Under the pieces are notes generated by a model. That model searched no databases. It saw only the letters and a program-made list of their open reading frames with translations, and was not told the DNA's origin. Source: a virus (taxonomy: Duplodnaviria > Caudoviricetes). From it: a stretch of 55,616 nucleotides of DNA. The stretch lies in the IMG/VR virus record IMGVR_UViG_3300028045_000018, positions 1-55,616 of that record; one strand, written 5' to 3'. Position numbers and translations under genes: made by a program. Positions 8,081-45,813 of the stretch are shown piece by piece. Every line of letters starts with the position of its first letter. The stretch's first letter is position 1.

Positions 8081-8090
8081 GAAGAATAAG

Positions 8091-12427: not shown

Positions 12428-12868
12428 ATGAAAATAAGAAATGGATTTGTAAGCAACAGTTCTAGTAGCTCTTTTTGTATTATGGGAGTTACTACATCAG
12501 AAAGCGAACTATTGCCGTTATATTTGAAAGCGATGGGCAAAGATGCTTCTGCCACTATCGAACCAGGTTGTAGTTGCGACATAGATAGAGATGCTATGAA
12601 GGAGCAAGGTTATAGCTTCTGTCCTAAATGTCAGAGCAAACTTTTTGTTGAAATAGAACCAGACGAAGAGTTATACGAAATGTGCGAAGCATTAGATCTA
12701 GACTACGCTTCCGAAGAATACGGAGACGCTTATGTTGGTATCAGTCTAAAATCAGGCAAAAACGTAGAAGGCGTAATCGAAGAACTTAGAAAAGCAGAAA
12801 AGAAATTGAAAGAACTATTTGGTGATGATGCAGACATCAGGGTACATTCTGGTGTTACATACGGATAA
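12428..12868 (+). CDS. GFVSNSSS-motif protein (orphan copy), CxxC zinc site
   Basis: Begins MKIRNGFVSNSSSSSF; CPKC. Confidence 0.85.
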   Translation: MKIRNGFVSNSSSSSFCIMGVTTSESELLPLYLKAMGKDASATIEPGCSCDIDRDAMKEQGYSFCPKCQSKLFVEIEPDEELYEMCEALDLDYASEEYGDAYVGISLKSGKNVEGVIEELRKAEKKLKELFGDDADIRVHSGVTYG

Positions 12869-22854: not shown

Positions 22855-22863
22855 GAATTGAAA

Positions 22864-27684: not shown

Positions 27685-28740
27685 ATGACTAAAAAAGAAA
27701 CTAAAAGAAAAATTAAAAGAAAAATTAAAAGAAAAGTTATTATTCGTAACAGTCAATCGCCTGGTGATATAGTCATGTTAACGGCTGCTGTTCGAGACTT
27801 GTATTTGTCTCATCCTGAGATAGGCATTGACCCAAGAACTTCTGCCGGTGAATTATGGGAGAATAACCCATATATTGTCAAATTGAAAGAAGGCAATAAA
27901 GATGTTGAAGACATTAAGGTAGACTATCCATTAATTCACGAAAGCAATGAAGGTCAACATCACTTTATACATGGATATCGTAAAGACTTAGAAGAGAAGT
28001 TAGGCATTAATATCAAACCAACTAAGTTTAAAGGAGATATCCATATCAGCGATGAAGAGAAAGGATGGATTTCTCAGGTCGAAGAGATGGGTATTAAAAA
28101 TGATTTTTGGATTGTCATGGCAGGTGGAAAATACGACTACACCTGTAAATTTTCAAATCCCAAAACAATTCAAAAAGTTATCGACCATTTTAAAGGTAAA
28201 ATAACTTTTGTACAGTGCGGTCAAGCAGACCACTATCATCCACAGCTTGACAATGTTATTAACTTAATAGGGAAAACAGATTTAAGACAATTTATACGTC
28301 TTATTTATCATTCTGTTGGAGTTCTTTGCCCTGTAACGTTTGCCATGCATGGTGCTGCTGCTATTGAGATGAAAAATACTCCTCCACAAAATAGACCATG
28401 TGTTGTTATTGCTGGAGGTAGAGAACCTCCTCAATGGGAAGCATATCCAAATCACAGGTTTTTAGATGTAAATGGAGCGATAGACTGTTGCGACAATGGA
28501 GGTTGTTGGAAAAGTAGATGTCAGACTGTTGGTGATGGCGATAAAAAAGATATCAAAGATTTATGTCTTTATCCGGTAGAGATTACAGACAAACTCAAAA
28601 TACCGAAGTGTATGGATATGATTAAAGACATTGATATAATAAGAGCGATATCTACATATTATAAAGGTGGAGTTTTAAAATACAATGACGATAAATCAAA
28701 CGACAAAACAATAATAAAAGTAGAAGGTGGCATATTGTGA
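27685..28740 (+). CDS. GT9 (heptosyltransferase-like) glycosyltransferase
   Basis: SPGDIVMLTAAVRDL, NNPY, NLIGKTDLRQ, MH.AAA. Confidence 0.85.
   Translation: MTKKETKRKIKRKIKRKVIIRNSQSPGDIVMLTAAVRDLYLSHPEIGIDPRTSAGELWENNPYIVKLKEGNKDVEDIKVDYPLIHESNEGQHHFIHGYRKDLEEKLGINIKPTKFKGDIHISDEEKGWISQVEEMGIKNDFWIVMAGGKYDYTCKFSNPKTIQKVIDHFKGKITFVQCGQADHYHPQLDNVINLIGKTDLRQFIRLIYHSVGVLCPVTFAMHGAAAIEMKNTPPQNRPCVVIAGGREPPQWEAYPNHRFLDVNGAIDCCDNGGCWKSRCQTVGDGDKKDIKDLCLYPVEITDKLKIPKCMDMIKDIDIIRAISTYYKGGVLKYNDDKSNDKTIIKVEGGIL
27703..27738 (+). repeat. 12-bp tandem repeat x3 encoding KRKI-KRKI-KRKV
   Basis: AAAAGAAAAATT AAAAGAAAAATT AAAAGAAAAGTT. Confidence 0.8.
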
Positions 28741-29810
28741 GTACGATAGGAATTTTTTCGAAGTTTGAGATGTGTGGTGGATCTGAGATAAGATGCATCG
28801 AGCTTGCTAATGCTATTTCTAAATATACTGAGCATGTGCCTTTAATTTTATGCGAAAAGAACATGCCCAAAAGTTTACTCGAATACAAAAACCATGAAGT
28901 ACAAGTAGTCGAAAACGTTTTATTGCCAGAACCAAATAATTTCGAGTATTTATATAAAGTTGATTCTCTTGTTATTATTAACACTGATTGTAAAGAGTTT
29001 TCAACGTTAGACTATTGGGAAGGCAAATCGACTAGGCATTCTATCAAAATCGATTTATCTAGAATATCTCAAATGACGTTTCTTTATAACTTTATAGTTA
29101 GTCCATCTAGACATTTACATACTATAGCAGAAAAAGGTGTTGATGTTAGAATTCTAGTTGCAAATCGCAAGTTTTTTGATGAGATCAGTAAGCAAGACAG
29201 ATATGAGATGGTTAGACATTTGCCTCGTATGATTATAGAAAGTCCTATAAATACAAAAAAAATACAACTTCCTAAAAACGTTTGTGATAAAATAAGAATT
29301 GGTAGACATTCTATAGGTTCTGAGTCTAAATTTGATGCTGAGAATGTTAAACTGATAAAAGAAATAAACAAAAGATATGAAAACGAGATAGAGTGGGATT
29401 TTATGGGAGTCCCAAAAAGAGACATAAAAGAATTGAAGAAAATCGAGAATGTAACTATAAGAAATACATTTTCTATTCCAGTATCTAAATACTTACAAGA
29501 TATAGATATTTTCCTTTTCTTTGTTTCGTGGAAGAGAGAAGAGCCATGGTCTAGATCTGTAGCTGAAGCGATAGCTAGTGGATGTCCGATTCTTGCAACT
29601 AATAGAGGCGGCAATAAAGATCAAGTTGTGCATGGAAACAATGGATTTTTATGCAAATCTCAAAAAGACTTTCATAAACATATTATTTCTTTGATAGAAC
29701 ATAGAGATCAAATAAAAAAAATGGGAGAAAATAGTTTACTTTATTCAAAATTCTTCACATCAGAATATGTTATAAATAAACTAGTTAAGTTCATTGGATT
29801 AGAAATATGA
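28737..29810 (+). CDS. GT4 (GT-B) glycosyltransferase
   Basis: GGSE; EPWSRSVAEAIASGCPILATNRGG..DQV..G.NGFL. Confidence 0.88.
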   Translation: MSTIGIFSKFEMCGGSEIRCIELANAISKYTEHVPLILCEKNMPKSLLEYKNHEVQVVENVLLPEPNNFEYLYKVDSLVIINTDCKEFSTLDYWEGKSTRHSIKIDLSRISQMTFLYNFIVSPSRHLHTIAEKGVDVRILVANRKFFDEISKQDRYEMVRHLPRMIIESPINTKKIQLPKNVCDKIRIGRHSIGSESKFDAENVKLIKEINKRYENEIEWDFMGVPKRDIKELKKIENVTIRNTFSIPVSKYLQDIDIFLFFVSWKREEPWSRSVAEAIASGCPILATNRGGNKDQVVHGNNGFLCKSQKDFHKHIISLIEHRDQIKKMGENSLLYSKFFTSEYVINKLVKFIGLEI

Positions 29811-30931
29811 AAAATATAATAGTTTGTAATCTAAAAAGATCTAAGGACTTAGAGCATTACAAAAAATATATTCATGGTCAAATAGACAATAGTTTATTAT
29901 TGGGTTGGAAAAAAGAAGATATCATTTTTGCGACAAATTTTTCTTATTCTTATAGGGGAGTAGAATCTGTCATTTTTGATTTAGACTGTAATTTTTGTTT
30001 AACTGGCAGTAAAGTATTTGCAATGGTCAAATTATTTGATGCTGGAATGATAACTGAAAATGCATGGTTACATGATTTAGATTTATGGCAAACACATCAA
30101 TTTGAGTTTCCTGAAGACATTGCTGATGTCGGCATGACCAGATATATTGGCAGATGGCAGGGAGGCAGTGTTTTTCTCAAACCATCTTCTAAAGATGTTT
30201 TTGTTAGGATTACAGATCGCATTAGGCAAGAAAAATCTAGAAAAGAAGAGCCTATTATTAAACTTGTTTTCAAAGAAGACGAATACAAAAAACGTGTTAC
30301 GCGAATAGATGGATCATATAATGTAGGAGCGACTGGTTTTGAAAAAAGATACGTTAACAGCCAGAAGCCCATTAAAGCCATACACATGCATCCTCATAGA
30401 GGAACAGATTATAATCGGAATATAGCTGGGATGAACAGGTTAGGCGTTAAAACTGTTGATAGTGATTTATTAAATATATTTTCTAAGTATTTTAACATAT
30501 CTAAAGATTTGACTAAAGATGCTTCTATAGACATAAAGATTAATAATTCCGATTATAATATAAGAGATTTATGTTGTGGAGAAAAGTTTCATACAAATAG
30601 AAGATTTAGTTTTGTAGGTATAGCAGATGTTTTAAAAGGAAGAAAATTTCTAGCTATACCGCATAAAAAGAAAGTTTCGATAGATATTACTGTCGTTGAG
30701 CCAGGTATTTTTGAAATAGGTCTTTGTGATGAGCATAAAGAAATAATATCTAGATTTGTAGAGTATTATGAGATGGAACACATACCTCTCAAAACAGATT
30801 ACAGAGACGCAAAAAAAATTAGATTATTTAGGAAGTTCTTCAAAAAAGGCGAGAGACTTTGTCTCGAACATGAATGGCGTGTTAATCCTATTATAATCGC
30901 AAACAAAATTAATTGTAAAAGGCAAAATTAA
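29807..30931 (+). CDS. Putative GT-A glycosyltransferase-like protein
   Basis: WLHDLD DxD motif; glycan-island context. Confidence 0.5.
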   Translation: MKNIIVCNLKRSKDLEHYKKYIHGQIDNSLLLGWKKEDIIFATNFSYSYRGVESVIFDLDCNFCLTGSKVFAMVKLFDAGMITENAWLHDLDLWQTHQFEFPEDIADVGMTRYIGRWQGGSVFLKPSSKDVFVRITDRIRQEKSRKEEPIIKLVFKEDEYKKRVTRIDGSYNVGATGFEKRYVNSQKPIKAIHMHPHRGTDYNRNIAGMNRLGVKTVDSDLLNIFSKYFNISKDLTKDASIDIKINNSDYNIRDLCCGEKFHTNRRFSFVGIADVLKGRKFLAIPHKKKVSIDITVVEPGIFEIGLCDEHKEIISRFVEYYEMEHIPLKTDYRDAKKIRLFRKFFKKGERLCLEHEWRVNPIIIANKINCKRQN

Positions 30932-31591
30932 ATGAAACCATCAAAAGATTTTAATAATATCTTTAAAGAAGTAGTAAATAAAGACACTTATATGATAAGA
31001 GATATTAAGAGAGATATAGATTTTGTAATCGACATAGGAGCTAATATAGGTGTATTTTCGTTATATTCTAGAATTATGTTTCCAGATGCACGCATAATAG
31101 CTATAGAACCAGAAAAAACCAACTTTGTACATTTGACAGAAAATCTTAAAGGATTATATGTCGATTGCGAGAATGCAGCTTGTGGTGACGGGCGAGAATT
31201 GTATTTCAGAAATAATGGTAGCAATTGTGGACAGTATACCTTCGAAGATAAGCCAATAGATGAAAAATCACTAATGGTAAGAAGTATTTCTCTAAAAGAT
31301 ATATTTAAAAAATATAATTTTAAAACAGATAAAAATTATATTATTAAATCCGATTGTGAAGGTGGAGAGAGATTTTTGTTAAATGATTATAAAGATATTA
31401 TAGGAAAATGTAAACATTTTTGCATGGAAATTCACTTTCCCAATCCTAGGCATAAACAGTTTGATAAGTTTCCTTCTTATATGGAATATTATAATTGGGT
31501 TCAAACCTTTTCACATACGCATAAAATAACATATCATCACTCTAGGAAAAAAAGTGGTATAGGGGTTTATGTTTTATCGAGATATATATAG
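30932..31591 (+). CDS. FkbM-family methyltransferase
   Basis: VIDIGANIG, AIEP, KSDCEGGE. Confidence 0.9.
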   Translation: MKPSKDFNNIFKEVVNKDTYMIRDIKRDIDFVIDIGANIGVFSLYSRIMFPDARIIAIEPEKTNFVHLTENLKGLYVDCENAACGDGRELYFRNNGSNCGQYTFEDKPIDEKSLMVRSISLKDIFKKYNFKTDKNYIIKSDCEGGERFLLNDYKDIIGKCKHFCMEIHFPNPRHKQFDKFPSYMEYYNWVQTFSHTHKITYHHSRKKSGIGVYVLSRYI

Positions 31592-31601
31592 AAAGATATA
31601 A

Positions 31602-32417
31602 ATGGCAGTTTGGAACGATTATAATTGGAGTTTTTGGGATTCAAATAAAAACCCATTACCTGAAAAATCTTCTAGATATAGGAAAATATCTATTTGTACT
31701 ACATGCATGAATAGATTAGGCAATCTTAAAGAAACATTACCCAAAAACATAGAAGACAACAAAGACTATCCAAATGTAGAATTTGTGCTGTTAGATTATA
31801 ATAGTGCAGATGGACTAGAAGATTGGGTAAAACAAAATATGATGGATCACATTAATTCTGGAAGATTAGTTTATTATAAAACATCTGAACCAGAACACTT
31901 TAGAATGGGACATTCTAGAAACGTTGCGTTTAAATTGTCAACAGGGGATATAGTTAACAATGTAGATGCCGATAATTTTATAGGGAAGGGGTTTATTGAC
32001 GTTATAAATAAATTAGCTGAACTTTGTCCGGAAAGAGCTATTTTCGCAAAAGGTAAACGAATGATGCATGGAAGAATAGGTCTTTATAAAAATGAGTTTT
32101 TGACTTTGGGCGGTTATGATGAAGATTTATTAGGATATGGATTTGATGATCATAGCGTGGTTTATAGAGCGATGGCTTTAGGACATAAATTCATGTGGTG
32201 GAATAATTCTGGTGATTTTATGAATAGAATAAAAACGTCCAGTAGAGATAAAACAAGACATATGTCAAAAACGAATAAAAACTGGAAAGAGACAGAAGTT
32301 ATCAATAAAGAAATAACGATGAAAAAAATAAAAGCTGGTGAATTTATAGTTAATCAAAACAGTCATTGGGGAAAAGCCGTTGTAACCAAAAATTTTGTAG
32401 AAACAACTAGTATATAA
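31602..32417 (+). CDS. GT2/GT7-like glycosyltransferase
   Basis: LLDYNSADG, SRNVA, NVDAD, GGYDE...GYGFDD. Confidence 0.85.
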   Translation: MAVWNDYNWSFWDSNKNPLPEKSSRYRKISICTTCMNRLGNLKETLPKNIEDNKDYPNVEFVLLDYNSADGLEDWVKQNMMDHINSGRLVYYKTSEPEHFRMGHSRNVAFKLSTGDIVNNVDADNFIGKGFIDVINKLAELCPERAIFAKGKRMMHGRIGLYKNEFLTLGGYDEDLLGYGFDDHSVVYRAMALGHKFMWWNNSGDFMNRIKTSSRDKTRHMSKTNKNWKETEVINKEITMKKIKAGEFIVNQNSHWGKAVVTKNFVETTSI

Positions 32418-32444
32418 AACGATTCGTCTAAAAGGTAAAAACAA

Positions 32445-33116
32445 ATGATTAGTAACGGCAATAATGACGGTGTTTCTGAGATTAAAACGATTGTCACAAA
32501 CGACATATATAAAGTGTCATCTTTTTTAAGTGGCGATTTAGACTTTATAGTAGATATAGGAGCGAATATAGGTGTTTTCTCTGTAATGATGCGAATGAAA
32601 CATCCTAAATCTAAAATAGTTGCTGTAGAGCCATGTTTAGAAACTGCATATTTTTTAGAGAAAAATACGAACATGCTTGATATAGATGTGCTTCCACATG
32701 CTTTTGGCAACGGTTCTGAAGTTTCTTTTTTTAGTGTAGATGACAATTTATTACGTAACGTTTTTATATCTGACGAAGAAGAGACATATCGGGTTAAAAG
32801 CTTAACGCTGGGAGATATATTCGACAAACAAAAATTAGACATATCACAAAATTACTTGTTAAAATTTGATTGTGAAGGTGCTGAACAGTTTTTGATAGGA
32901 GATCCTATCGCAGAAAATATCATTAAAAACTCGCTCCAAACAAGTTTAGAAATACATTTTAAATCTAAGAAAACTCCATATGACTTTTGGATCGATTTCA
33001 CTTCATACAATGATTGGGTCTACGAAAAGTTTTCAGATTCTCATTCAATAGATTATTATAAATCACGTAAAAACAATGGTTATGGTCATTACTGCATCAA
33101 AAGGAAAAATGGTTGA
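32445..33116 (+). CDS. FkbM-family methyltransferase
   Basis: IVDIGANIG, AVEP, KFDCEGAE. Confidence 0.9.
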   Translation: MISNGNNDGVSEIKTIVTNDIYKVSSFLSGDLDFIVDIGANIGVFSVMMRMKHPKSKIVAVEPCLETAYFLEKNTNMLDIDVLPHAFGNGSEVSFFSVDDNLLRNVFISDEEETYRVKSLTLGDIFDKQKLDISQNYLLKFDCEGAEQFLIGDPIAENIIKNSLQTSLEIHFKSKKTPYDFWIDFTSYNDWVYEKFSDSHSIDYYKSRKNNGYGHYCIKRKNG

Positions 33117-36100
33117 AAATAATCAAACAATTAATTTTTTACACAATGGTGCTCAGGGAGATATAATCTATTCTCTTCCAACGGTTATCGCTTTTGGAGG
33201 AGGCGATTTTTATTTTGAAAAACACAACCAATTTAAAAACTTATTATCTCTTTTAGAGTTGCAACCATATCTTAATTCAGTTGCTTTGTATGATAAAACT
33301 GCTAAAATTGATGTAAATCTTAGTGTTTATAGAAAAGAGGATTTAGTAAATAAGCACTTATGCAGATGTCATTTAGATCCATTTCAAAAAGAATACGATT
33401 TATCGAAGTCATGGATTACGAACATAGAACCAAAACATATGGCCGATATAATAATATGTAGGACTAGAAGATATCATGATAAGAAAGAGATTGATTGGTC
33501 TATATTAAAAAAATATGAAGATAAATTACTTTTCATTGGAGATGAAAAAGATCGTAAACTTCTTCATCAAGAATATGGAGTAAACGCAAAAGGATATTGG
33601 TGTAAAGACGGTTTAGAATTCGCACAGATTATAAAAGGTAGTAAGATATATATCGGGAATCAATCTTTGGGTTTCGCTTTAGCCGAAGCAATGAAACATC
33701 CTAGAATATTAGAAGTATATTATGGGAAAAATAATTGTCAACCAAATAGCGATAATGGATATACTTATCTTAATGAAGATTTAATTGATTCCCATTTAAA
33801 GGATAAAAAAATGATTAGTAAAAAAACTAAACATAGTGGACTTTCAGAAATTAAAACGATAATAAAACAAGACATATATAATGTCAACTCATATCGAGAT
33901 GGTGATATAGATTTTATAATAGATATTGGGGCAAATATAGGTGTGTTTTCTGTAATGATGAGAATGCGTCATCCAAATGCAAGAATAATTGCTATAGAAC
34001 CCAATCCAGAATCTTATGAATATTTATTATCTAATACTAATGCCCTTAATATTGAAACTGTACAAAAAGCCTTTGGAAATGGAAAAGAACTATTTTTCTT
34101 CGATAGAGACGGTACGATAATTAGCAATATTTATTTACACGATATAGAACAAAAAGATCAACGCGGTCGCATAGAAAGTTTAACATTAAAAAATATATTT
34201 GAGACATTTAACTTAGACATGTCACAAAACTATATATTAAAATTTGACTGTGAAGGAGCAGAAAAATATCTTGTTGAAGATAGCGATTCTGAAGAAATTA
34301 TTAAGAATTCTCTTCAAACTTGTTTAGAAATACATTTTAATTCTGGGTTTGCATCGTTTGATTTTTTTGAAGAATACAATACCTACAATGATTGGATTAA
34401 TAAGAAACTTTCAAATTCTCATTTTATTAGATATTACAAATCGAGAAGATCAAAAGGTTATGGTCATTATTGTTTAGTAAACAAAAATAAACTAAAACCT
34501 GAAAATAGATCTTTTTTTTCTTTTGGATATAAAGCAAAACAAGGACAAGACAAATGGATCGTAGATACTCTTGACTGGAAAACTAACGGATATTTTGTTG
34601 ATATAGGAGCATACGATGGAGTTGACGAAAGCAATAGTTATATTCTTGAAAAGGATTTTAATTGGAATGGCATATGTATAGAACCAAACATACATACTTT
34701 TTCTGAAATGAAAAAACAAAGAAAATGTATATGTGAAAATATATGTATTTCAGACGTTAATGGAACAGTAGAATTTATTGAAAGAGATAAAAAACATAAA
34801 ATGATTTCTGGGATACATGCAGAATTCTCAGATGATGCGGTTATAGATGGAATAAAAGATGGAGTTCCTGTGGTATCAAGGACATCAATGAGACTTTATG
34901 ATCTTTTGAAAAAACATAACAGTCCAAACGTCATAGATTATCTCAGCATAGATACAGAAGGATCTGAATATGAAATACTGAAAAACTTTCCTTTTGACAA
35001 ATATATATTTAAAAGAATAACAATAGAACATAATGCATGTAATGGTCAAAAAGAAGAAAAAAAGAAGAAAAAAATATTTGAGCTACTTACACAAAATGGT
35101 TATAAAAGAGTTGAAGAAATGCAATTTGAAGATTGGTACGTTTATAGCAACTCTTTAAAAGTAATTCATTTTGACGATTTACAACATATATCTAAAAAAT
35201 ATAAATCAATAAATAAAAAAATAGTTTCGACAAATGGTGTTTTTGATTTATTACATCCTGGACATTTGAGATTCCTTTCAGAGTGCAAAGAAAACGGAGA
35301 CATACTTGTTGTCGGACTCAATACGGATAGTTCTGTAAAAAGAATAAAGGGAGACAACAAACCAATATTAAACCAACAAGAACGAATTGAAATGTTGTCG
35401 CATGTTGATATTGTAGATTATATATGCTTGTTTGATGAAGAAACTCCATGCAAAATGCTTGCCGAGCTTAAGACAGATGTCCACTGTAAAGATTCAAGTT
35501 ATTCCATTGACGAAATAGTAGAAAAACCAACCGTTGAAGAAAATGGTGGAAAAATAGAACTTATAAAAAATCATTACGGATATTCGACTACCAATATTAT
35601 TAAAAGAGTAAAAAACAAATTAAAGATTGGAGTAATTATAATAGCAACAGGTCGTTATTTGGAATTAATACAAGATCCTCGTTTTGATATAATAAACTCA
35701 TTAAATAAGCACTTCTTTACTGAAGATATAGTTAATATTTATTTGTTTACTGATGGCGATCCACCAGATAATGTAAAACATATTTATCAAGAACAAATGC
35801 CGTGGCCGTATCCTACGTTATTGAGATTCCGCTCTTTTTATAATTCGAGAGATATCTATAAAGATAATGATTATATGTTCTATATAGACGCAGATTCTCG
35901 TATCGTATCTGATGTTGGGAAAGAAATTATTTCTGATTTTACAGTTGTACAACATTGGTCATTAAGAAGATACAAAAACAAAAAAAGATTTCCATTCGAA
36001 ACCAACATACAATCAACTTCAGCAATAACAGATCCAAATTATTCAGAATATTATTCTGGAGCTTTCTTTGGAGCAAAAACAGATAAGTTTATATCAATGT

Positions 36101-36348
36101 CCAAAAACCTGTCTGATAATGTAGATAAAGATCTGGAAAATAACATTATTGCGGTATGGCACGATGAAAGTCATTTAAATAAATATTGTTATGACAATCC
36201 CCCAGAACTAGTTCTTGACAGTAGGTATCAAGCAAGGATAAACCATGTACACGAACTAGAAGACACAGATCTATTGAAACAAAGAGATTATAAAATAACT
36301 GGTTTAAATTTAGTTGATAAAAAACATTATAGGATTAAAGAAAAATGA
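33109..36348 (+). CDS. Five-domain glycan enzyme: GT9-like + FkbM + FkbM + cytidylyltransferase (RfaE/HldE-II-like) + GT6
   Basis: GAQGDIIYSLP...YIGNQS; DIGANIG..KFDCEG; DIGAYDG..SIDTEGSE; NGVFDLLHPGH..GLNTD; IIATGRY..YIDAD..AVWHDESHLNKY. Confidence 0.85.
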   Translation: MVENNQTINFLHNGAQGDIIYSLPTVIAFGGGDFYFEKHNQFKNLLSLLELQPYLNSVALYDKTAKIDVNLSVYRKEDLVNKHLCRCHLDPFQKEYDLSKSWITNIEPKHMADIIICRTRRYHDKKEIDWSILKKYEDKLLFIGDEKDRKLLHQEYGVNAKGYWCKDGLEFAQIIKGSKIYIGNQSLGFALAEAMKHPRILEVYYGKNNCQPNSDNGYTYLNEDLIDSHLKDKKMISKKTKHSGLSEIKTIIKQDIYNVNSYRDGDIDFIIDIGANIGVFSVMMRMRHPNARIIAIEPNPESYEYLLSNTNALNIETVQKAFGNGKELFFFDRDGTIISNIYLHDIEQKDQRGRIESLTLKNIFETFNLDMSQNYILKFDCEGAEKYLVEDSDSEEIIKNSLQTCLEIHFNSGFASFDFFEEYNTYNDWINKKLSNSHFIRYYKSRRSKGYGHYCLVNKNKLKPENRSFFSFGYKAKQGQDKWIVDTLDWKTNGYFVDIGAYDGVDESNSYILEKDFNWNGICIEPNIHTFSEMKKQRKCICENICISDVNGTVEFIERDKKHKMISGIHAEFSDDAVIDGIKDGVPVVSRTSMRLYDLLKKHNSPNVIDYLSIDTEGSEYEILKNFPFDKYIFKRITIEHNACNGQKEEKKKKKIFELLTQNGYKRVEEMQFEDWYVYSNSLKVIHFDDLQHISKKYKSINKKIVSTNGVFDLLHPGHLRFLSECKENGDILVVGLNTDSSVKRIKGDNKPILNQQERIEMLSHVDIVDYICLFDEETPCKMLAELKTDVHCKDSSYSIDEIVEKPTVEENGGKIELIKNHYGYSTTNIIKRVKNKLKIGVIIIATGRYLELIQDPRFDIINSLNKHFFTEDIVNIYLFTDGDPPDNVKHIYQEQMPWPYPTLLRFRSFYNSRDIYKDNDYMFYIDADSRIVSDVGKEIISDFTVVQHWSLRRYKNKKRFPFETNIQSTSAITDPNYSEYYSGAFFGAKTDKFISMSKNLSDNVDKDLENNIIAVWHDESHLNKYCYDNPPELVLDSRYQARINHVHELEDTDLLKQRDYKITGLNLVDKKHYRIKEK

Positions 36349-37025
36349 TTACTAATAATAAAAATCAAGGGTTCGCACCAATCAAACAAATCATAACAGA
36401 AGACCTTTTTAGAGTAAGAGGTTATCCAATTGATTCTTTTGATTATATAATTGATATAGGAGCTAATTTAGGGGTGTTTTCATTATTCACTGCCATGTTA
36501 TATCCCAAAGCTCGTATATTTGCATATGAACCATGTAAAGAAACATATAACTATTTGGTCAAAAACGTACATGGTTTTAATGTTGAATGTTTTCAACTCG
36601 CTCTAGGAGATGGCAATGATCTCTACCTGTCTGAACAAAAAGATCATACTGAAAACTTTTTTACTGAAAAGTCATTAGATGGAATTAAAACAAAAACTAA
36701 AAAACTATCAAACATGATTAAAGATATAGGAATAGATATTAACAATAGCAACTATTTGATTAAAATGAATGTAGAAGGTGGTGAGAAATTTCTACTTACA
36801 GATGATCTATCTGATATAATAAAAAATTGCAAGCATTTTTGCATGTCAATTCATTTCAGTTCGTTAAAAGGATGGGGTTCTGAAAAAAATAATCATTTAT
36901 TAACATACGATAAATATGATGAATGGACCAAACAATTCGAGTCAACGCATGACGTATTTTATTACAAATCAAGGAAATCTAAAGGCTATGGTCACTATTT
37001 GTTGAAAAAGAAAGTTGATTTATAA
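36345..37025 (+). CDS. FkbM-family methyltransferase
   Basis: IIDIGANLG, AYEP, KMNVEGGE. Confidence 0.9.
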   Translation: MITNNKNQGFAPIKQIITEDLFRVRGYPIDSFDYIIDIGANLGVFSLFTAMLYPKARIFAYEPCKETYNYLVKNVHGFNVECFQLALGDGNDLYLSEQKDHTENFFTEKSLDGIKTKTKKLSNMIKDIGIDINNSNYLIKMNVEGGEKFLLTDDLSDIIKNCKHFCMSIHFSSLKGWGSEKNNHLLTYDKYDEWTKQFESTHDVFYYKSRKSKGYGHYLLKKKVDL

Positions 37026-38090: not shown

Positions 38091-38197
38091 ATAATATTTT
38101 TCAAAAATAAATAAGAATATCCTCTAATTGTGACGCATTTTAGAGTATAATTAATGAATTAATTGTAAGTCGTACTTTAGAACTACTAACTTGGAGA

Positions 38198-39352
38198 ATG
38201 CGAATGTTTAATGATGGACCAAAGATGGCAATAATTGAAAGTCCGAAAAAAAAGGCTCTCATATCTGAACATTATAATTATGTTTTTGATAAAGAGACAG
38301 GATTTTTCGCGCGTTGGGGCAAGACCAAAGAGGAAGATCCCGATTTTTCTCCTTTCGGGCCAGAGATTCTTGACCTTGAGATTGACTCTGGTGAGTGTCT
38401 CGGCAATTGCAAGTTCTGTTACAAATGCAATGGTAGCGGCGTACCAAGTAAACATATGTCTCTCGAAGACTTTAAAACTTTACTCGAAAAAATGCCTAAA
38501 ACGCTTACCCAAATAGCTCTAGGTATCACCAATATACATTCAAATCCTGATTTCTTTGACATTATGAGACACTCCAAAGAGAAAGGCGTAATTCCGAACT
38601 ATACGACTCACGGCTTAGATGTTGATGAAGAAGCTGTTAAAATTACATCAGAGCTTTGCGGTGCAGTCGCCGTAAGTATTGTTAACAAAAACAAAACTTA
38701 TGACGCTATCAAGAAATATGTTGACGCTGGCATGGATCAAGTTAACATCCATTATATGCTCAGCGAAGAGACTTATGAGAGAGCGTTTGAAATTGTTGAA
38801 GACATGAAAACCGATGAAAGGCTTGCTGGAATGAGAGCAATCGTCTTCCTTCAATATAAGCCCAAGGGAGATACTCCAGACGCTTTCCATTCGATAAGAG
38901 ACCCAGAACAATATAAAAAACTTGTCAACTTCTGTCTTGAAAAACAAGTTAATTTCGGCTTCGATTCCTGTTCTGCACCTCTCTTTTTAAAGAGCATTGA
39001 AGGATTAGAAAGAGAAGATGATTTTGTTCAATCGGCAGAGCCTTGTGAAGGCTTTGGGATGTTTAGCTCTTATATCAATTGTGATGGCGAATTTTTCCCC
39101 TGTTCTTTCTGCGAAGGAGAAAAGGGATGGGAAGAAGGTCTTGACGCTTTAAATTGCGAAAGCTTTTTGAAAGACGTTTGGCATTCAGAAAAAATTAAAA
39201 TGTGGCGTGATATTATATTACAATCATCTGAGAACTGCGATTGTAAGTTTAGCGACGGATGCAGATCATGTCCTATTTTTGATATAACCTCTTGTAAAAA
39301 TTGGGCAGATAAAGACGAAAAAGAACTTCGTTATTGGGATACTGCTGTATAG
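38198..39352 (+). CDS. Radical SAM enzyme with C-terminal SPASM/Twitch-like domain
   Basis: CLGNCKFC (CxxxCxxC); PCEG..S.YINCDG..FPCSF...CDC.....CRSCP; class A promoter 38129-38151. Confidence 0.9.
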   Translation: MRMFNDGPKMAIIESPKKKALISEHYNYVFDKETGFFARWGKTKEEDPDFSPFGPEILDLEIDSGECLGNCKFCYKCNGSGVPSKHMSLEDFKTLLEKMPKTLTQIALGITNIHSNPDFFDIMRHSKEKGVIPNYTTHGLDVDEEAVKITSELCGAVAVSIVNKNKTYDAIKKYVDAGMDQVNIHYMLSEETYERAFEIVEDMKTDERLAGMRAIVFLQYKPKGDTPDAFHSIRDPEQYKKLVNFCLEKQVNFGFDSCSAPLFLKSIEGLEREDDFVQSAEPCEGFGMFSSYINCDGEFFPCSFCEGEKGWEEGLDALNCESFLKDVWHSEKIKMWRDIILQSSENCDCKFSDGCRSCPIFDITSCKNWADKDEKELRYWDTAV

Positions 39353-39360
39353 GAAATAAG

Positions 39361-39708
39361 ATGAAACAGAGAAACGGATTTGTTAGCAATAGTTCAAGTA
39401 CGTCATTTACGATAACAAATACATCAGATGATGATAAAACAATTGTAGATTTTATTAAAGAAAATTTACAACTTGTAGACGACTTTAACGCAATGTATGA
39501 TTGGCACAACTATTCTCACGAAGATGCAATAGAAAGTGCAAAAAACAACTATTGTGGTGATGAATATTCTTTTTCGGGGAAAGAAAAGAAAAACATCGCC
39601 TTTGGAGATGAAGAAGGAACAGTTTTAGGTAGAATCTTTGATTACATTCTTCGAGATGGTGGAACTTCTGAAAATTTCACTTGGAAGTTTGATCAATACT
39701 ATAGATAG
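39361..39708 (+). CDS. GFVSNSSS-motif protein 1
   Basis: MKQRNGFVSNSSSTSF (start 39361). Confidence 0.85.
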   Translation: MKQRNGFVSNSSSTSFTITNTSDDDKTIVDFIKENLQLVDDFNAMYDWHNYSHEDAIESAKNNYCGDEYSFSGKEKKNIAFGDEEGTVLGRIFDYILRDGGTSENFTWKFDQYYR

Positions 39709-39717
39709 GAGAATAAA

Positions 39718-39993
39718 ATGAAAATTAGAAACGGATTCGTTAGCAATAGCTCAAGTAGCTCTTTTGTAGTTAAAAAAGAAGGACTCAATGAGTTACAGAT
39801 TTATGCGATTCACAATCATATAGAAATAGTAAATAAAATGATTTTCCCTGAATGGACAGCCGAAGAGCATCCAGATGGGGCATGGAGCATAATAGAATGC
39901 GATACTGTCATTGAGCTATCTACTTCGATGGATAATTTTGATATGGAGTTTTTCCTTAATAAAATAGGTGTTCCGAAAGAAAATATATCATGA
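39718..39993 (+). CDS. GFVSNSSS-motif protein 2
   Basis: MKIRNGFVSNSSSSSF. Confidence 0.85.
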   Translation: MKIRNGFVSNSSSSSFVVKKEGLNELQIYAIHNHIEIVNKMIFPEWTAEEHPDGAWSIIECDTVIELSTSMDNFDMEFFLNKIGVPKENIS

Positions 39994-40370
39994 AAATAAG
40001 AAATGGATTTGTAAGTAATAGCTCAAGTAGCTCTTTCGTAGTTGCTATTAAAAAAGATGACGTATGTCCTCATTGCGGAAGAGGCGATCCCAGTATTTTA
40101 AAAGCTATTGAAGAAAAAGCTAATTATGGTGGAGAAACAGAACTTGATGGTGTAGGACTAGATGCAGTTTTAGAGTATGCTGATGAAATAAGCAGTTATG
40201 GTGACTATCACGACGATGAAGCAGACAGAATAAGAGAAAAAGCTGTAACATACGGAAACGACTGGGAATTGGCTGTTTTTTCCGTGTCTTATCACGATGA
40301 ATTCATAAATCAAATGATAGAAGAGATGAAATCAGCAGGAACAATAGAATTTTTAGATAAAGAAGGTTAA
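39990..40370 (+). CDS. GFVSNSSS-motif protein 3
   Basis: MKIRNGFVSNSSSSSF; CPHC. Confidence 0.85.
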   Translation: MKIRNGFVSNSSSSSFVVAIKKDDVCPHCGRGDPSILKAIEEKANYGGETELDGVGLDAVLEYADEISSYGDYHDDEADRIREKAVTYGNDWELAVFSVSYHDEFINQMIEEMKSAGTIEFLDKEG

Positions 40371-40371
40371 A

Positions 40372-41211
40372 ATGAAAATAAGAAACGGATTCGTAAGCAA
40401 TAGTTCAAGTAGTTCTTTTGTAGTCGCTTTTCCTAGTGAACCAAAGAACTATGATAACGTCTTTGAGATGATGTTCCATGGTAAAGAAGGCGGTATTTCT
40501 ATCTATGACACAGAAGGAATGTCTCACTCTCAAATTGCGGATAGAGTTTGGAGAGATATTGAAAACGGGACAGACGATAAATACTATGGTTATAGTAAAA
40601 CTATACCAGCCAAAAAAGATGATATTATAGAGGAGTTTTCTGGTCGATATTATTACAGTCCTGCCGATTCAAATATGTCTTGGTTTGGTCAAAAGGGTGA
40701 TGAACTCGGTGGATCTTGGATGGAACCTATTGATAAATATTGCGGTAATGACAAGACCTCTATGGACGAACTTAGAAATTTTACTATCAGTTCTAATACC
40801 AAAGAAAAAGAGCTTTATCAAAAAATGAACGACATCATCAAAAACGAGTTCAAACTCAAACAGCCAAAATTTGCGTATAAGAATGGCAAAGACAGAAAAA
40901 CTGGTGATCCCTACACAGATGAAGAGATTAAAACTTATGATGATTATCTCGCGGCTCTTCTTAAATTCAGAAATGAACATGAAGAGTATAAAGCTGTTAG
41001 AGATGAAGAGCTTTCCACTAGTCAAAATAAGTGGAAAGAAAAAGAGCGTCTTGCTCGTCAAATAGCCAAAGTTGATGCAGAAGTTTTTCTTGAAGATAAC
41101 AAAGAAGCTTACATTGTTATTCTTTCGTATGCAGATGATGGTGGAGAATGTACTCTTGAGCATGGCGATATTTTTAGAAACGTTCCACACATACAGATAA
41201 GTCACCACTAA
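40372..41211 (+). CDS. GFVSNSSS-motif protein 4
   Basis: MKIRNGFVSNSSSSSF; 279 aa. Confidence 0.85.
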   Translation: MKIRNGFVSNSSSSSFVVAFPSEPKNYDNVFEMMFHGKEGGISIYDTEGMSHSQIADRVWRDIENGTDDKYYGYSKTIPAKKDDIIEEFSGRYYYSPADSNMSWFGQKGDELGGSWMEPIDKYCGNDKTSMDELRNFTISSNTKEKELYQKMNDIIKNEFKLKQPKFAYKNGKDRKTGDPYTDEEIKTYDDYLAALLKFRNEHEEYKAVRDEELSTSQNKWKEKERLARQIAKVDAEVFLEDNKEAYIVILSYADDGGECTLEHGDIFRNVPHIQISHH

Positions 41212-41222
41212 GGAATAGAAGA

Positions 41223-41627
41223 ATGAAACAAAGAAACGGATTTGTAAGTAACTCAAGTAGTGCCAGTTTCATTGTAAAATGGAAATGGAAAGGAGATCAT
41301 TCATCAGAAGAAAATATGTTGGCAGCAAGCCTACTTAAAATATTTGCTATGTATCATAAATGTGGAGATGTAACATTAGAAGAATTAGAATCAGACGATT
41401 TCGACTTTGAAAAACTTGATGGTATTGACGAAGATGGAAAAGAACGTCTCGAAAAAATACGTGAAATGATAAAGCAGACTGAAGAAATCGAAGGATGGTA
41501 TGTTACAATGTTTTGGACATGCATGTATAATGAGAATAATGATTTCGGAGAAGTAGCAAAAGAGTTGATGTTTTATCTCTTAATATCAGGTCACATTGAG
41601 TATAATTTCGAAATCATAGAAGGCTAA
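41223..41627 (+). CDS. GFVSNSSS-motif protein 5
   Basis: MKQRNGFVSNSSSASF. Confidence 0.85.
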   Translation: MKQRNGFVSNSSSASFIVKWKWKGDHSSEENMLAASLLKIFAMYHKCGDVTLEELESDDFDFEKLDGIDEDGKERLEKIREMIKQTEEIEGWYVTMFWTCMYNENNDFGEVAKELMFYLLISGHIEYNFEIIEG

Positions 41628-41636
41628 GGAGAATTA

Positions 41637-41888
41637 ATGAAAATTAGAAATGGTTTTGTTAGTAATAGTAGCGGAAGTAGCTTCGTTTGCGATATATGCG
41701 GAGACGAAAGACAAGGATATGAATTAGTAGATATCCGTATGGTAGAATGCGAAAATGGCTGTATTATTTGCGATGACCATTTAGACTCAGATGCAATTAT
41801 AAATTACGTCTGTATTGAACCAAGATTAGATGAAGAAAGTTGTCCGGTTTGTAGTCCCAAAAAGAAAGGATCAAAAAATGAAAATTAG
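41637..41888 (+). CDS. GFVSNSSS-motif protein 6 (Cys-rich)
   Basis: MKIRNGFVSNSSGSSF; CDIC, CENGC..C..H, CPVC. Confidence 0.85.
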   Translation: MKIRNGFVSNSSGSSFVCDICGDERQGYELVDIRMVECENGCIICDDHLDSDAIINYVCIEPRLDEESCPVCSPKKKGSKNEN

Positions 41889-42315
41889 AAACGGATTCGT
41901 AAGTAACAGTTCAACCAGTTCTTTTTACATCTATGGAATATGTTTAGATGAAGGCGACGAAATAATAAACAGAATTAAAGAAAATGCTACAGATGAAATA
42001 CAAAAAACTCTGTTAACCAAAAACAATGAAGCCGCAGCAAAATCCTCATACAAAAATGCGTTTGATGATTTCGCTGCATACATAGACAGTTTTGGTGAAG
42101 ACTTTTATGAATTGCTGTACGATGTAGGAGACGTAGTAAAACTTTCAATAAACCAACCTGAATACTGTGGAACTTTTATCGGTATCGATCCATGCAACAT
42201 CAGAGATGATGAGACAGGTAAAGAATTTAAAACTCGCGTAGAAACTCTTATCAAATCTTTGCTTGGAGATATCAAAGGTTTTGGTTGGCACGAACATGCA
42301 TGGAGAGACGGTTAA
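41878..42315 (+). CDS. GFVSNSSS-motif protein 7
   Basis: MKIRNGFVSNSSTSSF (start 41878, AAGGA SD). Confidence 0.85.
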   Translation: MKIRNGFVSNSSTSSFYIYGICLDEGDEIINRIKENATDEIQKTLLTKNNEAAAKSSYKNAFDDFAAYIDSFGEDFYELLYDVGDVVKLSINQPEYCGTFIGIDPCNIRDDETGKEFKTRVETLIKSLLGDIKGFGWHEHAWRDG

Positions 42316-42316
42316 A

Positions 42317-42691
42317 ATGAAAATTAGAACTGGATTCGTAAGCAATAGTAGCTCAAGCAGTTTCATTTGCGAGGTTTGCGGAGCATCAGAAGTAGGATAT
42401 GATAACATTCCAAAAGATTTAGGAATGGAAGAATGCGAACATGATCATCTTTTTTGTAAAAGCCATTTAAGAAAAATCGGCAAAAAAATAACCTATAAAG
42501 AAGAAGATGACTATGGCATTATGGCAGTAACTGAAAATTGCTGCCCAATCTGTACCTTGAAAGATATACATGATTCTCTATTGTTGAGATATCTTAATAA
42601 TAAATTCAGTATAACAAAAAAAGAAATTATAGATGAAATCCAACGAGATTTTAAAAATATAGACGAACTAAATACATACTTAGAAAAATAA
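42317..42691 (+). CDS. GFVSNSSS-motif protein 8 (Cys-rich)
   Basis: MKIRTGFVSNSSSSSF (start 42317); CEVC, CEHDH..C..H, CPIC. Confidence 0.85.
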   Translation: MKIRTGFVSNSSSSSFICEVCGASEVGYDNIPKDLGMEECEHDHLFCKSHLRKIGKKITYKEEDDYGIMAVTENCCPICTLKDIHDSLLLRYLNNKFSITKKEIIDEIQRDFKNIDELNTYLEK

Positions 42692-43923: not shown

Positions 43924-44237
43924 AATAAAGGAATCTTATTTTTTTCTTGCAATGTGTATAGATATCGTGCTATAATGCCGATACTGAAGTTAGAAGCATG
44001 TTCTATGAGGGCATGCATAAATAAACGAGATAGAAAATGAAGACTAATCAAAACATTACGACTGACCAACAGAACGCCACTGGCGTAGTTGCTCAATCTC
44101 TATCATCGTATTATTCATATCTCTTGCTGTCCAGTTTATGTCTCTAAGACATAATTAGGATTTGCTCTAAATTTTTCCCCTTTCGTTCCCCAGTAATTTC
44201 CAGCAAATCCAGTAAGAGAATTTTTATAATTAAATAA

Positions 44238-44321
44238 GTACCAGTTGGACAATTGGCTGTCCAGAAGGCTGTAACCCTTCCACCCGAGAGGGTATTGCAG
44301 GTTCGAATCCTGCCTGGTACA
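44238..44321 (+). tRNA. tRNA-Tyr(GTA)
   Basis: GTACCAG/CTGGTAC, GAAGG-CTGTAAC-CCTTC, long variable arm. Confidence 0.92.
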
Positions 44322-44345
44322 TGAGAATGGGATGATGGTTGGAAA

Positions 44346-44610
44346 GTCAACTACCCTAAAGGAAGGGCTTGAACCGTGAGGTTCGAGAGTAATTAGTTGA
44401 TTAGTGAGCTTAATTAAGGAATTAGTTATGCAGCAGTTACAATCAAAGTTAAAGAACGCACCAAGGAATGCCTCCCTAGTTCCTTGCTCTGTAAATTCTT
44501 CATTAAACAAAGATCAAAGTCTTAGTGTGGAGAATAAAGTACTGAATTGTAACAATCACGAAGGGAATCTACCTCAACGTAAAGAGGGAAAGAACTTGAG
44601 AGTCTCTTTC
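44346..44610 (+). ncRNA. omegaRNA (HEARO-like) scaffold of IscB
   Basis: GTCAACTACCC...GGGCTTGAACC-GTGA-GGTTCGAG...TAGTTGA opening; TTAAACA motif; directly upstream of PLMP-containing ORF. Confidence 0.8.
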
Positions 44611-45813
44611 ATGGTTTACGTATTAAATTTACGAGGAGAACCTTTGATGCCATGTTCTCCGCAGAAAGCTAAGAAATTGATTAAGGAGAATTTAGCGTGT
44701 GTAGTTAGAAGAAGTCCATTTACGATTCAGTTGAAATATGCGACTGGAGAGAATAAACAGGAAGTAACATTAGGAATAGATTCTGGAGCAAAGAATATAG
44801 GTTTTAGTGCAGTTTCGAAAGAAAAAGAATTAATAAGCGGAACTGTAGTTCTTGATGATAAAATGAAATCAAGACTAGCAGATAGAAAAATGTATCGCAG
44901 AAGTAAAAGAGGCAAATTGTGGTACAGGAAACCCAGATGGAAAAATAGAGTTTCTACTAAGAAGAAAGGTTGGCTTCCACCTTCTATTTTAAGGAAATAT
45001 TTCACTCATTTAACTCTTATTAATAAAATTAAACATCTTCTTCCTATTACTAAAGTAGTAGTAGAAGTAGGAAATTTTGACATACAAAAGATTAAGAATC
45101 CTGATATTTCTGGTAAAGAGTATCAAGAAGGTGATTTATTAGGTTATAATAATGTTAAATCTTATATTTTTGCAAGAGAAAATTATATTTGTCAACTTTG
45201 TAAGAAATCAGTTATTGGAGATAAGACTAATTTACATCATATTATTCCTAAACCTGAAGGAACCGACAAAGCAGACAACTTGGCTTTATTACACAAGAAG
45301 TGCCACAAAAAACTACATGAACAAGGTTTAGAAAGTAAACTGAAGAAAAGTAAACAATATAAAGAAGCAACGTTTATGAATATTGTTAAGAATAAGTTTC
45401 AAGAAGATTTAGATTGTAAACTTGTTTTTGGTTATGAAACGTTTACTAAGAGAAATGAACTAGGAATAGGAAAATCACATATTAACGATGCTTTTGTAAT
45501 TTCAGGTGGAGAAAAACAAGAAAGAACATTACCTTTTGAAGCAACACAAAAACGTAAAAACAATAGATGTTTACAAAAAAATAGAAAAGGATTTAAACGT
45601 TCTGTTCGTAAGCAAAGATATGCTATTCAACCTAAAGACCTAGTTAAGATAGAAGGTAAGTTTTTTGAAGTCAAAGGTATATTTAGTTATGGAAAACAGA
45701 TTAGATTAGTTAATAAGGTAGGAAAAATTGTTAATAAATCAGTTAAAAAAGTGAATTGGGTTTTTCATAATAAAACGTTAATATGGAACGTAACTGTGAA
45801 TCGAAGAAAGTAA
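44611..45813 (+). mobile_element. iscB: IscB RNA-guided nuclease (IS200/IS605 OMEGA), apparently intact; no TnpA in window
   Basis: MVYVL...PLMP, LGIDSG (RuvC-I), R..RR..R bridge helix, VEVGNFD, CQLC..HHIIP..N..HKKCH (HNH), KSHINDA (RuvC-III). Confidence 0.93.

Follow-up and report, generated by a model that had tools for sequence, protein, structure and literature searches.

The window analysed here is the complete 55,616-nucleotide stretch of the IMG/VR virus record IMGVR_UViG_3300028045_000018 (Duplodnaviria; Caudoviricetes; positions 1 to 55,616). The record is rated 27% complete, and near-identical sequence is present in seawater and marine metagenomes from several studies. It encodes a radical S-adenosylmethionine (SAM) enzyme followed by eight open reading frames (ORFs), all co-directional with it, whose products share one short N-terminal sequence (hereafter, the tag; consensus MKxRxGFVSNSSSSSF) and then diverge. 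We refer to the tagged proteins as clients. The features of this cassette, together with a ninth tagged gene elsewhere in the window, are as follows.

38146..38151 (+): TATAAT hexamer, 46 nucleotides upstream of the radical SAM start; candidate -10 element, read directly
38198..39352 (+): radical SAM enzyme, SPASM/twitch group, 384 amino acids, assigned by phrog_7293, its Cys motif and profile comparison with the PDB
39361..39708 (+): client 1, 115 amino acids, MKQRNGFVSNSSSTSF; tagged, body family with two members among the loci studied
39718..39993 (+): client 2, 91 amino acids, "MDNFDM" family (26 unique members); tagged, used as the co-fold partner
39990..40370 (+): client 3, 126 amino acids; tagged, body family with five members
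40372..41211 (+): client 4, 279 amino acids, "core" family, the commonest client family; tagged, AlphaFold2 model with a predicted local distance difference test score (pLDDT) of 92.5
41223..41627 (+): client 5, 134 amino acids; tagged, body family with three members
41637..41888 (+): client 6, 83 amino acids, Cys-rich (zinc-ribbon-like) family with 20 members; tagged
41878..42315 (+): client 7, 145 amino acids, "FCIYG...WxDG" family with 30 members; tagged, AlphaFold2 pLDDT 83.4
42317..42691 (+): client 8, 124 amino acids, same Cys-rich family as client 6; tagged
12428..12868 (+): client 9, 146 amino acids, same body family as client 7; tagged, 26 kb upstream of the enzyme

The first-pass annotation, made from the sequence of the window, had described a radical SAM gene with a CxxxCxxC motif and a Cys-rich C-terminal region heading eight tagged genes. 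The enzyme ORF carries this motif at C67/C71/C74, and all eight genes were found at the starts it gave, with products of 83 to 279 amino acids; its count is complete for the genes downstream of the enzyme and one short for the window, given the ninth copy at 12428-12868. The N-termini of the eight downstream products read MK(I/Q)R(N/T)GFVSNSS. Their genes are tightly packed, abutting or overlapping (39990/39993 and 41878/41888), and a purine-rich stretch lies a few bases upstream of every tag ATG. A degenerate DNA pattern for GFVSNSS had nine matches in the window, against 0.26 expected from 100 shuffles. The tag-coding copies vary mainly at third codon positions, and their serine codons alternate between AGY and TCN, which indicates selection on the peptide and not a DNA repeat, as had been proposed. 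The class A promoter placed ahead of the cassette in the same annotation was not recovered: a sigma-70 scan called no promoter upstream of 38198, since the lone TATAAT at 38146-38151 has no -35 element at 16-18 nucleotide spacing. The ninth client gene adjoins one for an ATP-dependent RNA ligase at 12886-13938 (+), of the DRB0094 family (TIGR02306, 166 bits, above the cut-off).

The window enzyme scored slightly below the Pfam cut-offs for Radical_SAM (PF04055; 27.5 bits, cut-off 29.5) and SPASM (PF13186; 17.4 bits, cut-off 21.5). The Radical_SAM shortfall is marginal, because many homologues at 50-60% identity carry PF04055 in their precomputed annotation, and a protein search with the enzyme retrieved 2,770 proteins at E <= 0.001, many of them bearing this domain. 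The family identity thus comes from the match to phrog_7293 (E 4.8e-89; annotated as "unknown function" in PHROGs), the CxxxCxxC motif and the PF04055-bearing homologues, and not from the Pfam score of the window protein. In an alignment of 26 homologues (29-66% identity), C67/C71/C74, C154 and C258/C283/C302/C358 were invariant (26/26). Further Cys residues of the window enzyme lie in a CxC...CxxC...C region; this block is absent from 12 of the 26 homologues, including all four from a distant clade described below, so one auxiliary cluster is certain for the family, and a second would be limited to part of it. The alignment, searched as a profile, matched BtrN (3.5e-5, in the C-terminal/twitch domain), SkfB (1.9e-4) and CteB (3.6e-3) in the PDB, and we used this profile search in place of a single-sequence PDB search, which returned spurious repeat-protein matches. 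Judged by these comparisons, the enzyme is a member of the SPASM/twitch group without a close characterised relative. NCBIfam gave weak partial matches only (TIGR04317, a tungsten-cofactor maturase model, at 23.2 bits with a cut-off of 380; NirJ at 15.7 bits with a cut-off of 515), and one homologue bears the source name "sulfatase maturation enzyme AslB". Residues 1-60 had no Pfam match, to a recognition element (RRE) or to any other domain; the co-fold described below uses a short conserved hairpin in this part (residues 34-41) instead.

The radical SAM gene of several relatives is matched in two or three pieces 0.1-1.5 kb apart, or has a single in-frame stop (records G031, G033, G035, G049, G056, G104, G132, G136 and G137, and locus L014), a pattern that suggests insertions (introns or homing endonucleases) or recoding. 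In the published description of Klebsiella phage Kpn35c1 the homologue consists of two separate genes, and a GIY-YIG endonuclease is listed in the variable region that contains them (PMC9960720). Table S1E of another study lists 12 radical SAM genes for one T4-like marine genome (PMC5332604).

The tag is constrained at the protein level. Among 462 unique tags, K2 was found in 99%, R4 in 90% (otherwise K), V8 in 94% and F16 in 93%. G6 was present in 86%, with D in 44 tags (10%), S in 14 and other residues in 6, and F7 in 97%, replaced by L in 8 (including all three tags found at locus L016), Y in 5 and M in 1. S9 was present in 88%, with T in 49, A in 4 and G in 1. N10, S11 and S12 did not vary in any of 445 unique tags that had been anchored on positions outside 9-15. 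Out of 1.84 billion proteins, a 30-position tag profile retrieved 28,831 cluster representatives (50% identity) at E <= 0.001, and with few exceptions the top 150 matches aligned from residue 1 onwards. Some database proteins, P0243-P0252, carry two tags, the second of which is internal, Met-initiated and placed right after the apparent end of another client; these are most likely adjacent tagged genes merged by gene calling or by stop read-through. Tagged proteins also make up phrog_7397 ("unknown function"), which matched the 279-amino-acid client at E 1.5e-17 and the other seven clients of the cassette at E 4.7e-6 to 6.6e-3; five of these matches ran through the N-terminal 19-32 residues only, and three extended across 58-77 residues.

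Beyond the tag, the clients are a set of different proteins. By their bodies, the 293 unique tagged proteins from 81 loci (20-279 amino acids, median 139) sorted into 82 groups, of which 55 are singletons and 27 have several members, and the nine clients of the window fall into seven recurrent groups. When the eight largest groups were compared profile to profile without the tag, none of the 28 pairs exceeded 12.3% probability. Bodies that are unrelated and yet recurrent point to a repertoire of distinct conserved families and not to a hypervariable library; the divergence reported in the first-pass annotation therefore stands, and the "diversified library" drawn from it does not. The core family keeps a C-terminus of the form YxD..G....LEHGxIF..L.H..ISxH, with conserved Y253, D255, E263, H264, G265, F268 and H279 (D255, E263, F268 and H279 invariant). 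Client 4 has a long helical hairpin insert, and the core client also occurs in a short form of ~165 amino acids without it.

AlphaFold2 modelled the 279-amino-acid client with confidence (pLDDT 92.5, predicted template modelling score 0.86), with residues 1-9 below a pLDDT of 50, residues 13-20 as a strand in the core sheet and the helical hairpin at 128-242. The 145-amino-acid client (pLDDT 83.4) has residues 5-12 below 50 and a strand at 15-23. If both models are right, only about residues 1-12 of the tag would act as a free tail, with the body and its first strand beginning after them.

Searches with the clients recovered no characterised relative. Foldseek against the PDB returned nothing at E <= 0.001 for the 279- and 145-amino-acid models. 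VIA-align with the larger model found helical-hairpin look-alikes only (best Z 7.5), so that the core fold was barely probed, and with the smaller one no convincing solved relative (best Z 4.5). The ESM Atlas yielded viral "hypothetical protein" clusters only; an SMC/SbcC-like structural row there (TM 0.36) was too weak to be credited. None of the eight clients of the cassette came near a Pfam cut-off, the two tested against NCBIfam had no match, and tblastn of the 279-amino-acid client against isolate phages gave no match at 1e-3, a search in which the low-complexity filter masks the tag. Gly-rich C-termini recur on unrelated client bodies (...GGYNG, ...AWYNG, ...GAGRDG, ...GGNDNE and ...YGTxxx), for example at loci L025, L027, L034, L036 and L073 and in the window genes 41878-42315 and 12428-12868, which hints at a second shared sequence element.

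These data bear on one alternative, namely that the tag is the N-terminal structural or ligand motif of a single old and diverged superfamily, and that the enzyme works in the same pathway without acting on the tag. The core strand at residues 13-20 in both models would fit such an origin, as would the similar Gly-rich ends of many clients and the conserved C-terminal D/E/H/H of the core family, which resembles a metal or active site. We consider it quite unlikely, given that none of the 28 profile-profile pairs showed similarity, that the bodies include forms as different as Cys-rich ribbons and alpha/beta domains bearing a coiled-coil insert, and that the most conserved residues (1-12) are unstructured in the models and are placed in the enzyme by the co-fold.

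To examine the relationship between the tag and the enzyme we compared their occurrence across phage records; near-duplicates and a few large clades are among the records counted. Enzymes 52-55% identical to that of the window were followed directly by one to four tagged genes at four of four IMG/VR loci, and a tag lay within 10 kb at 58 of the best 80 of 181 loci found with the enzyme profile. Where the enzyme was at least 36% identical to that of the window, tags were found within 10 kb at 80/82 loci. Of 21 searchable records without a nearby tag, 20 were rated 1-13% complete, and the sole complete one (321 kb) had 13 tag-pattern matches elsewhere in the record. The nearest tag was at a median of 349 nucleotides from the enzyme gene, within 500 nucleotides at 67 of 108 loci and within 2 kb at 100 of them. 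Nearly all tags (511/512) were on the strand of the enzyme, and 411/512 were downstream of it. Arrays had a median of four and up to 13 tagged genes, with 14 on one metagenome-assembled contig.

The reverse search started from the clients. An alignment of the core client family led to 76 IMG/VR loci, and for 68 of these the enzyme is encoded in the whole record (34/38 plus 34/38), including 20/20 of those at least 90% complete (9/9 plus 11/11); the eight without it are all fragments rated 4-38% complete. A second client family (A6) added 39 searchable records new to the set, 24 of which encode the enzyme, as do all three that are at least 90% complete, making 23/23 such records for both client families together. 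As a baseline, the enzyme was matched in 173 of 50,697 isolate phage records, nearly all of RB43/KP15-type T4-like phages. The core client family was found in 175 isolate records, with genus tallies nearly those of the enzyme: identical in eight name groups and 115 versus 110 for Klebsiella, while the enzyme list has three records beyond those of the core client (Vibrio and two more). The genomic association that the first-pass annotation had put forward as a check was thus observed in both directions.

The ORFs on the enzyme strand were clustered from -7 to +9 kb around the enzyme at 105 non-redundant loci. A presence in more than 25% of the loci was reached only by the enzyme itself (105) and the core (56), "FCIYG" (38) and "MDNFDM" (26) families; the Cys-rich client family (22 loci, 21%) was just under this line, and no untagged family was conserved beside the enzyme among the 105 loci. 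Among 185,579 cellular species genomes the core family occurred at eight loci, seven of them on metagenome-assembled contigs, with the enzyme within 10 kb at four of the eight, so the system is essentially confined to phages. T4, RB69 and KVP40 lack the enzyme (0/3), and each had one loose pattern match, none of which reads as a tag. Phage Miller has the enzyme with no tagged gene within 6 kb and two at 19-23 kb, one of which belongs to the core family.

The tag could instead be a targeting or assembly signal (for capsid packaging, export or degradation) with an indirect link to the enzyme. The internal proteins of T4 set a precedent, as they are tandem small proteins with a short shared N-terminus, the capsid-targeting sequence; the phage tag is likewise strictly N-terminal on diverse tandem small proteins. 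The T4 signal differs in sequence and is not known to have such a partner enzyme, and T4, RB69 and KVP40 have neither the phage tag nor the enzyme. Such a signal would leave unexplained why the enzyme is the sole conserved neighbour, why tag and enzyme clade covary and why docking is predicted, and the cassette is not among recognisable head genes in the window. Taken together, this makes a targeting role very unlikely.

The tag sequence varies with the enzyme. R4-G6-S9 was the majority tag at 78/80 loci with a close enzyme, and K4-D6-T9 (MKxKxDF[VI]TNSSS) was the majority tag at 23/28 loci with an enzyme less than 36% identical to that of the window. At 15 loci of this distant K4-D6-T9 clade only, a small membrane protein of ~127 amino acids, with an N-terminal hydrophobic segment followed by an acidic run, is encoded directly upstream of the enzyme (L072, L090, L144, L145, L049 and others).

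We then co-folded the enzyme (26-row alignment), SAM and two 4Fe-4S clusters with the client encoded at 39718-39993 (20-row alignment). The interface score ipSAE was 0.84, 0.84 and 0.83, against 0.00 for the highest-scoring of three controls; the ipSAE mark was passed in calibration by 58/80 solved complexes and 2/110 mismatched pairs, figures that are a rough guide here as own alignments and ligands were supplied. The runs had at least 65% of contacts in common, with a partner pLDDT of at least 41. On the client side, the confident interface comprised residues 1-11 and 14 only, with tag residues 1-11 inside the enzyme barrel, K2-R4 paired with enzyme residues 35-40, and G6 and F7 against Q105, N134, C154-A156 and residue 181. 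The interface takes in 33 enzyme residues, and 11 of them are invariant in the family alignment, versus 3.2 expected (p = 6e-5). The co-folding suggested in the first-pass annotation therefore places the tag in the active-site barrel, and the prediction supports binding between the enzyme and the tag.

Binding would also be expected if the tag were a docking plug that tethers varied adaptors or regulators, which direct or gate the enzyme toward another substrate (a nucleic acid, a host protein or a small molecule). This accounts for the same co-occurrence, covariation and co-fold, and the small size of many clients, like the zinc-ribbon-like bodies of some, is common among adaptors. Tag residues 6-7 are, however, predicted at invariant barrel residues, a substrate position and not a peripheral one; up to 13-14 different adaptors for one enzyme in one phage would be unusual, and N10-S11-S12 in 445/445 tags is stricter than is usual for a docking strand. 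We regard a docking plug as unlikely.

Given the linkage, the conservation of the tag, its covariation with the enzyme and the predicted docking, we favour the interpretation that the radical SAM enzyme is a maturase that modifies the shared N-terminal tail of many phage client proteins, and judge it moderately likely; the catalysis on the tag, the site of reaction and the biological role are inferred from this evidence. It retains from the first-pass annotation a maturase editing a shared motif, which agrees with the linkage and the predicted docking, and replaces the diversified client library with recurrent families. In the proposed mechanism, the first ~12 client residues would protrude as a free tail before the first beta-strand of the body, and K2-R4 would join as a strand onto the conserved N-terminal hairpin of the enzyme (34-41). 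The later residues would enter the barrel, where F7 would lie next to Q105, N134 and C154-A156; contacts would continue through residue 11. A 5'-deoxyadenosyl radical abstracts hydrogen from the substrate in radical SAM enzymes generally; here, reductive cleavage of SAM would generate this radical for abstraction from a tail residue. The chemistry would most likely take place within F7-S12, the segment in which N10-S11-S12 never varies. Candidate products are an oxidised, formylglycine-like Ser (-2 Da), a C-alpha epimer (0 Da), for which the invariant C154 is a possible hydrogen donor, and an intra-tail crosslink. At least seven unrelated families in this window, and dozens across phages, could then share the modified tail as a functional handle.

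Three other chemistries were considered and set aside or weakened. Thioether formation was dropped, as the tag has no Cys. Glycyl radical proteins carry an invariant Gly in an RVxG[FWY]-type motif; a glycyl radical was dropped, as G6 is not universal (D in 44, S in 14 and other residues in 6 of 462 tags), and the R-x-G spacing of the tag differs from that motif. Three-residue cyclophane (triceptide) maturases act on an aromatic residue at position 1 of the crosslinked triad, and this option was weakened by the tags in which F7 is replaced by L (8 of 462) or M (1 of 462).

Several observations weigh against modification of the tag by this enzyme. Near-duplicate records and large clades mean that the independent lineages are fewer than the records counted. 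Enzymes less than 36% identical to that of the window had tags within 10 kb at only 28/50 loci, most of the tagless ones being small fragments, and 15 of the 39 records selected with A6 lack the enzyme; these are rated 5-79% complete, and one of them, at 261 kb, is the 79% complete record. A distance of 19-23 kb separates the enzyme from the tagged genes in T4-like isolates, where they do not form one operon. The covariation is essentially one evolutionary split, which is consistent with recognition and is not strong alone. In the co-fold the client body was poorly folded (pLDDT 41-44), and the prediction may partly recall solved radical SAM-peptide complexes; CteB and SkfB are distant relatives of the enzyme family. 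Both AlphaFold2 models use residues 13-20 as a core strand of the body, so part of the tag conservation could be structural. The sequence data appear to single out no one reaction or product, and with no Cys in the tag and a replaceable F7, the thioether and cyclophane chemistries of this enzyme group fit poorly.

Modification by a maturase has its closest parallel in the radical SAM/SPASM-twitch enzymes of RiPPs (peptides made on the ribosome and then modified post-translationally), of the CteB, SkfB and SuiB type. These belong to the same superfamily and subgroup, with the weak profile match to BtrN, SkfB and CteB, and the phage enzyme would likewise have several co-encoded substrates with a conserved N-terminal recognition sequence, from genes directly downstream on the same strand; the substrate N-terminus is predicted to add to the enzyme as a strand. 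A single enzyme with many precursors is also known from the prochlorosins. The proposed phage substrates differ in that they are folded proteins of 83-279 amino acids from at least 27 recurrent, mutually unrelated families and not short peptides, that two of them fold confidently in AlphaFold2 (pLDDT 92.5 and 83.4), and that the enzyme seems to act on the conserved part itself, which would not be a leader for a variable core. No domain of a recognition element, protease or exporter was detected with Pfam.

The sulfatase-maturating enzymes anSME and AtsB convert Ser or Cys to formylglycine in sulfatases, and the phage system would resemble them in that a SPASM-group enzyme acts on a whole protein, with a Ser of a short conserved N-terminal motif as its target. 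The analogy to anSME in the first-pass annotation fails on the substrate motif, as the tag lacks (C/S)xPxR; the clients are not sulfatases, and there was no curated family match. QhpD is a SPASM radical SAM enzyme that crosslinks a protein. Thioether crosslinks introduced by a SPASM enzyme into methanogen proteins, as outlined in a 2026 report (PMC13692751), are a further precedent for whole-protein substrates. QhpD and the methanogen enzyme form thioethers from Cys on one substrate, whereas the phage tag has no Cys and is found on many clients. Radical SAM peptide epimerases (PoyD, YydG/EpeE) remove the hydrogen at C-alpha and supply a new one from a conserved Cys. An additional Cys of the phage enzyme, C154, is invariant and predicted beside tag residues 6-7, and Ser/Asn-rich stretches are plausible epimerase substrates; the phage enzyme and the epimerases show no detectable sequence relationship beyond the superfamily.

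The size of the clients, their arrays and their restriction to phages suggest that they may be host-takeover or counter-defence proteins. A tentative extension, which we put forward as possible at best, is that the enzyme arms the invariant Asn-Ser-Ser with a new group (an aldehyde, a D-residue cap or a backbone crosslink) on which dozens of otherwise unrelated host-takeover or anti-defence proteins depend for activity, stability or delivery. This would be a new class of post-translational modification, shared by phages of many lineages (T4-like, jumbo and marine), and its natural substrates would number tens of thousands. Maturation of ribosomal products by radical SAM enzymes is already known, and what is unusual here is the scale and the type of substrate. 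A full-text literature search found no description of the tag motif or of a tag and enzyme system, Pfam and NCBIfam have no model for the clients, and the PHROGs families of both enzyme and clients are listed as "unknown function". If the enzyme does modify the tag, a function could be assigned to the 28,831 tag clusters and about 2,770 enzyme clusters of viral dark matter, and phage biology would gain a radical SAM modification of whole proteins. Further gains would be a handle on arrays of small early-region phage proteins, and a portable tag of 16-20 residues with one enzyme, maybe usable for site-specific protein modification. The system is also present in cultured Escherichia coli phages of the RB43 group and is thus directly testable.

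Other genes of the window include several of known families. Downstream of the cassette, a 469-amino-acid ORF at 44404-45813 (+) matches the RNA-guided endonuclease IscB (NF040563, 296 bits, cut-off 175), and the ~270 nucleotides upstream of it (44136-44400) could hold a putative guide (omega) RNA. A sugar-modification cluster occupies 27685-37025 (+), with related genes also at 7142-9047. It includes a GT1 glycosyltransferase (28737-29810), a 1090-amino-acid fusion of an FkbM methyltransferase with heptose-1-phosphate adenylyltransferase-like and family-6 glycosyltransferase domains (33076-36348) and a further FkbM methyltransferase (36345-37025); a PIG-L-like deacetylase (7142-8080) and a nucleotide-sugar epimerase (8091-9047) are encoded at the second site. 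A 560-amino-acid ORF at 22858-24540 (+) has a eukaryotic-type Ser/Thr kinase domain (Pkinase, 46 bits, above the cut-off), this in a phage with a Ser-rich tag on its clients, and one of 509 amino acids at 526-2055 (+) has an ArdC N-terminal (anti-restriction) domain at 23.2 bits, against a Pfam cut-off of 22.6.

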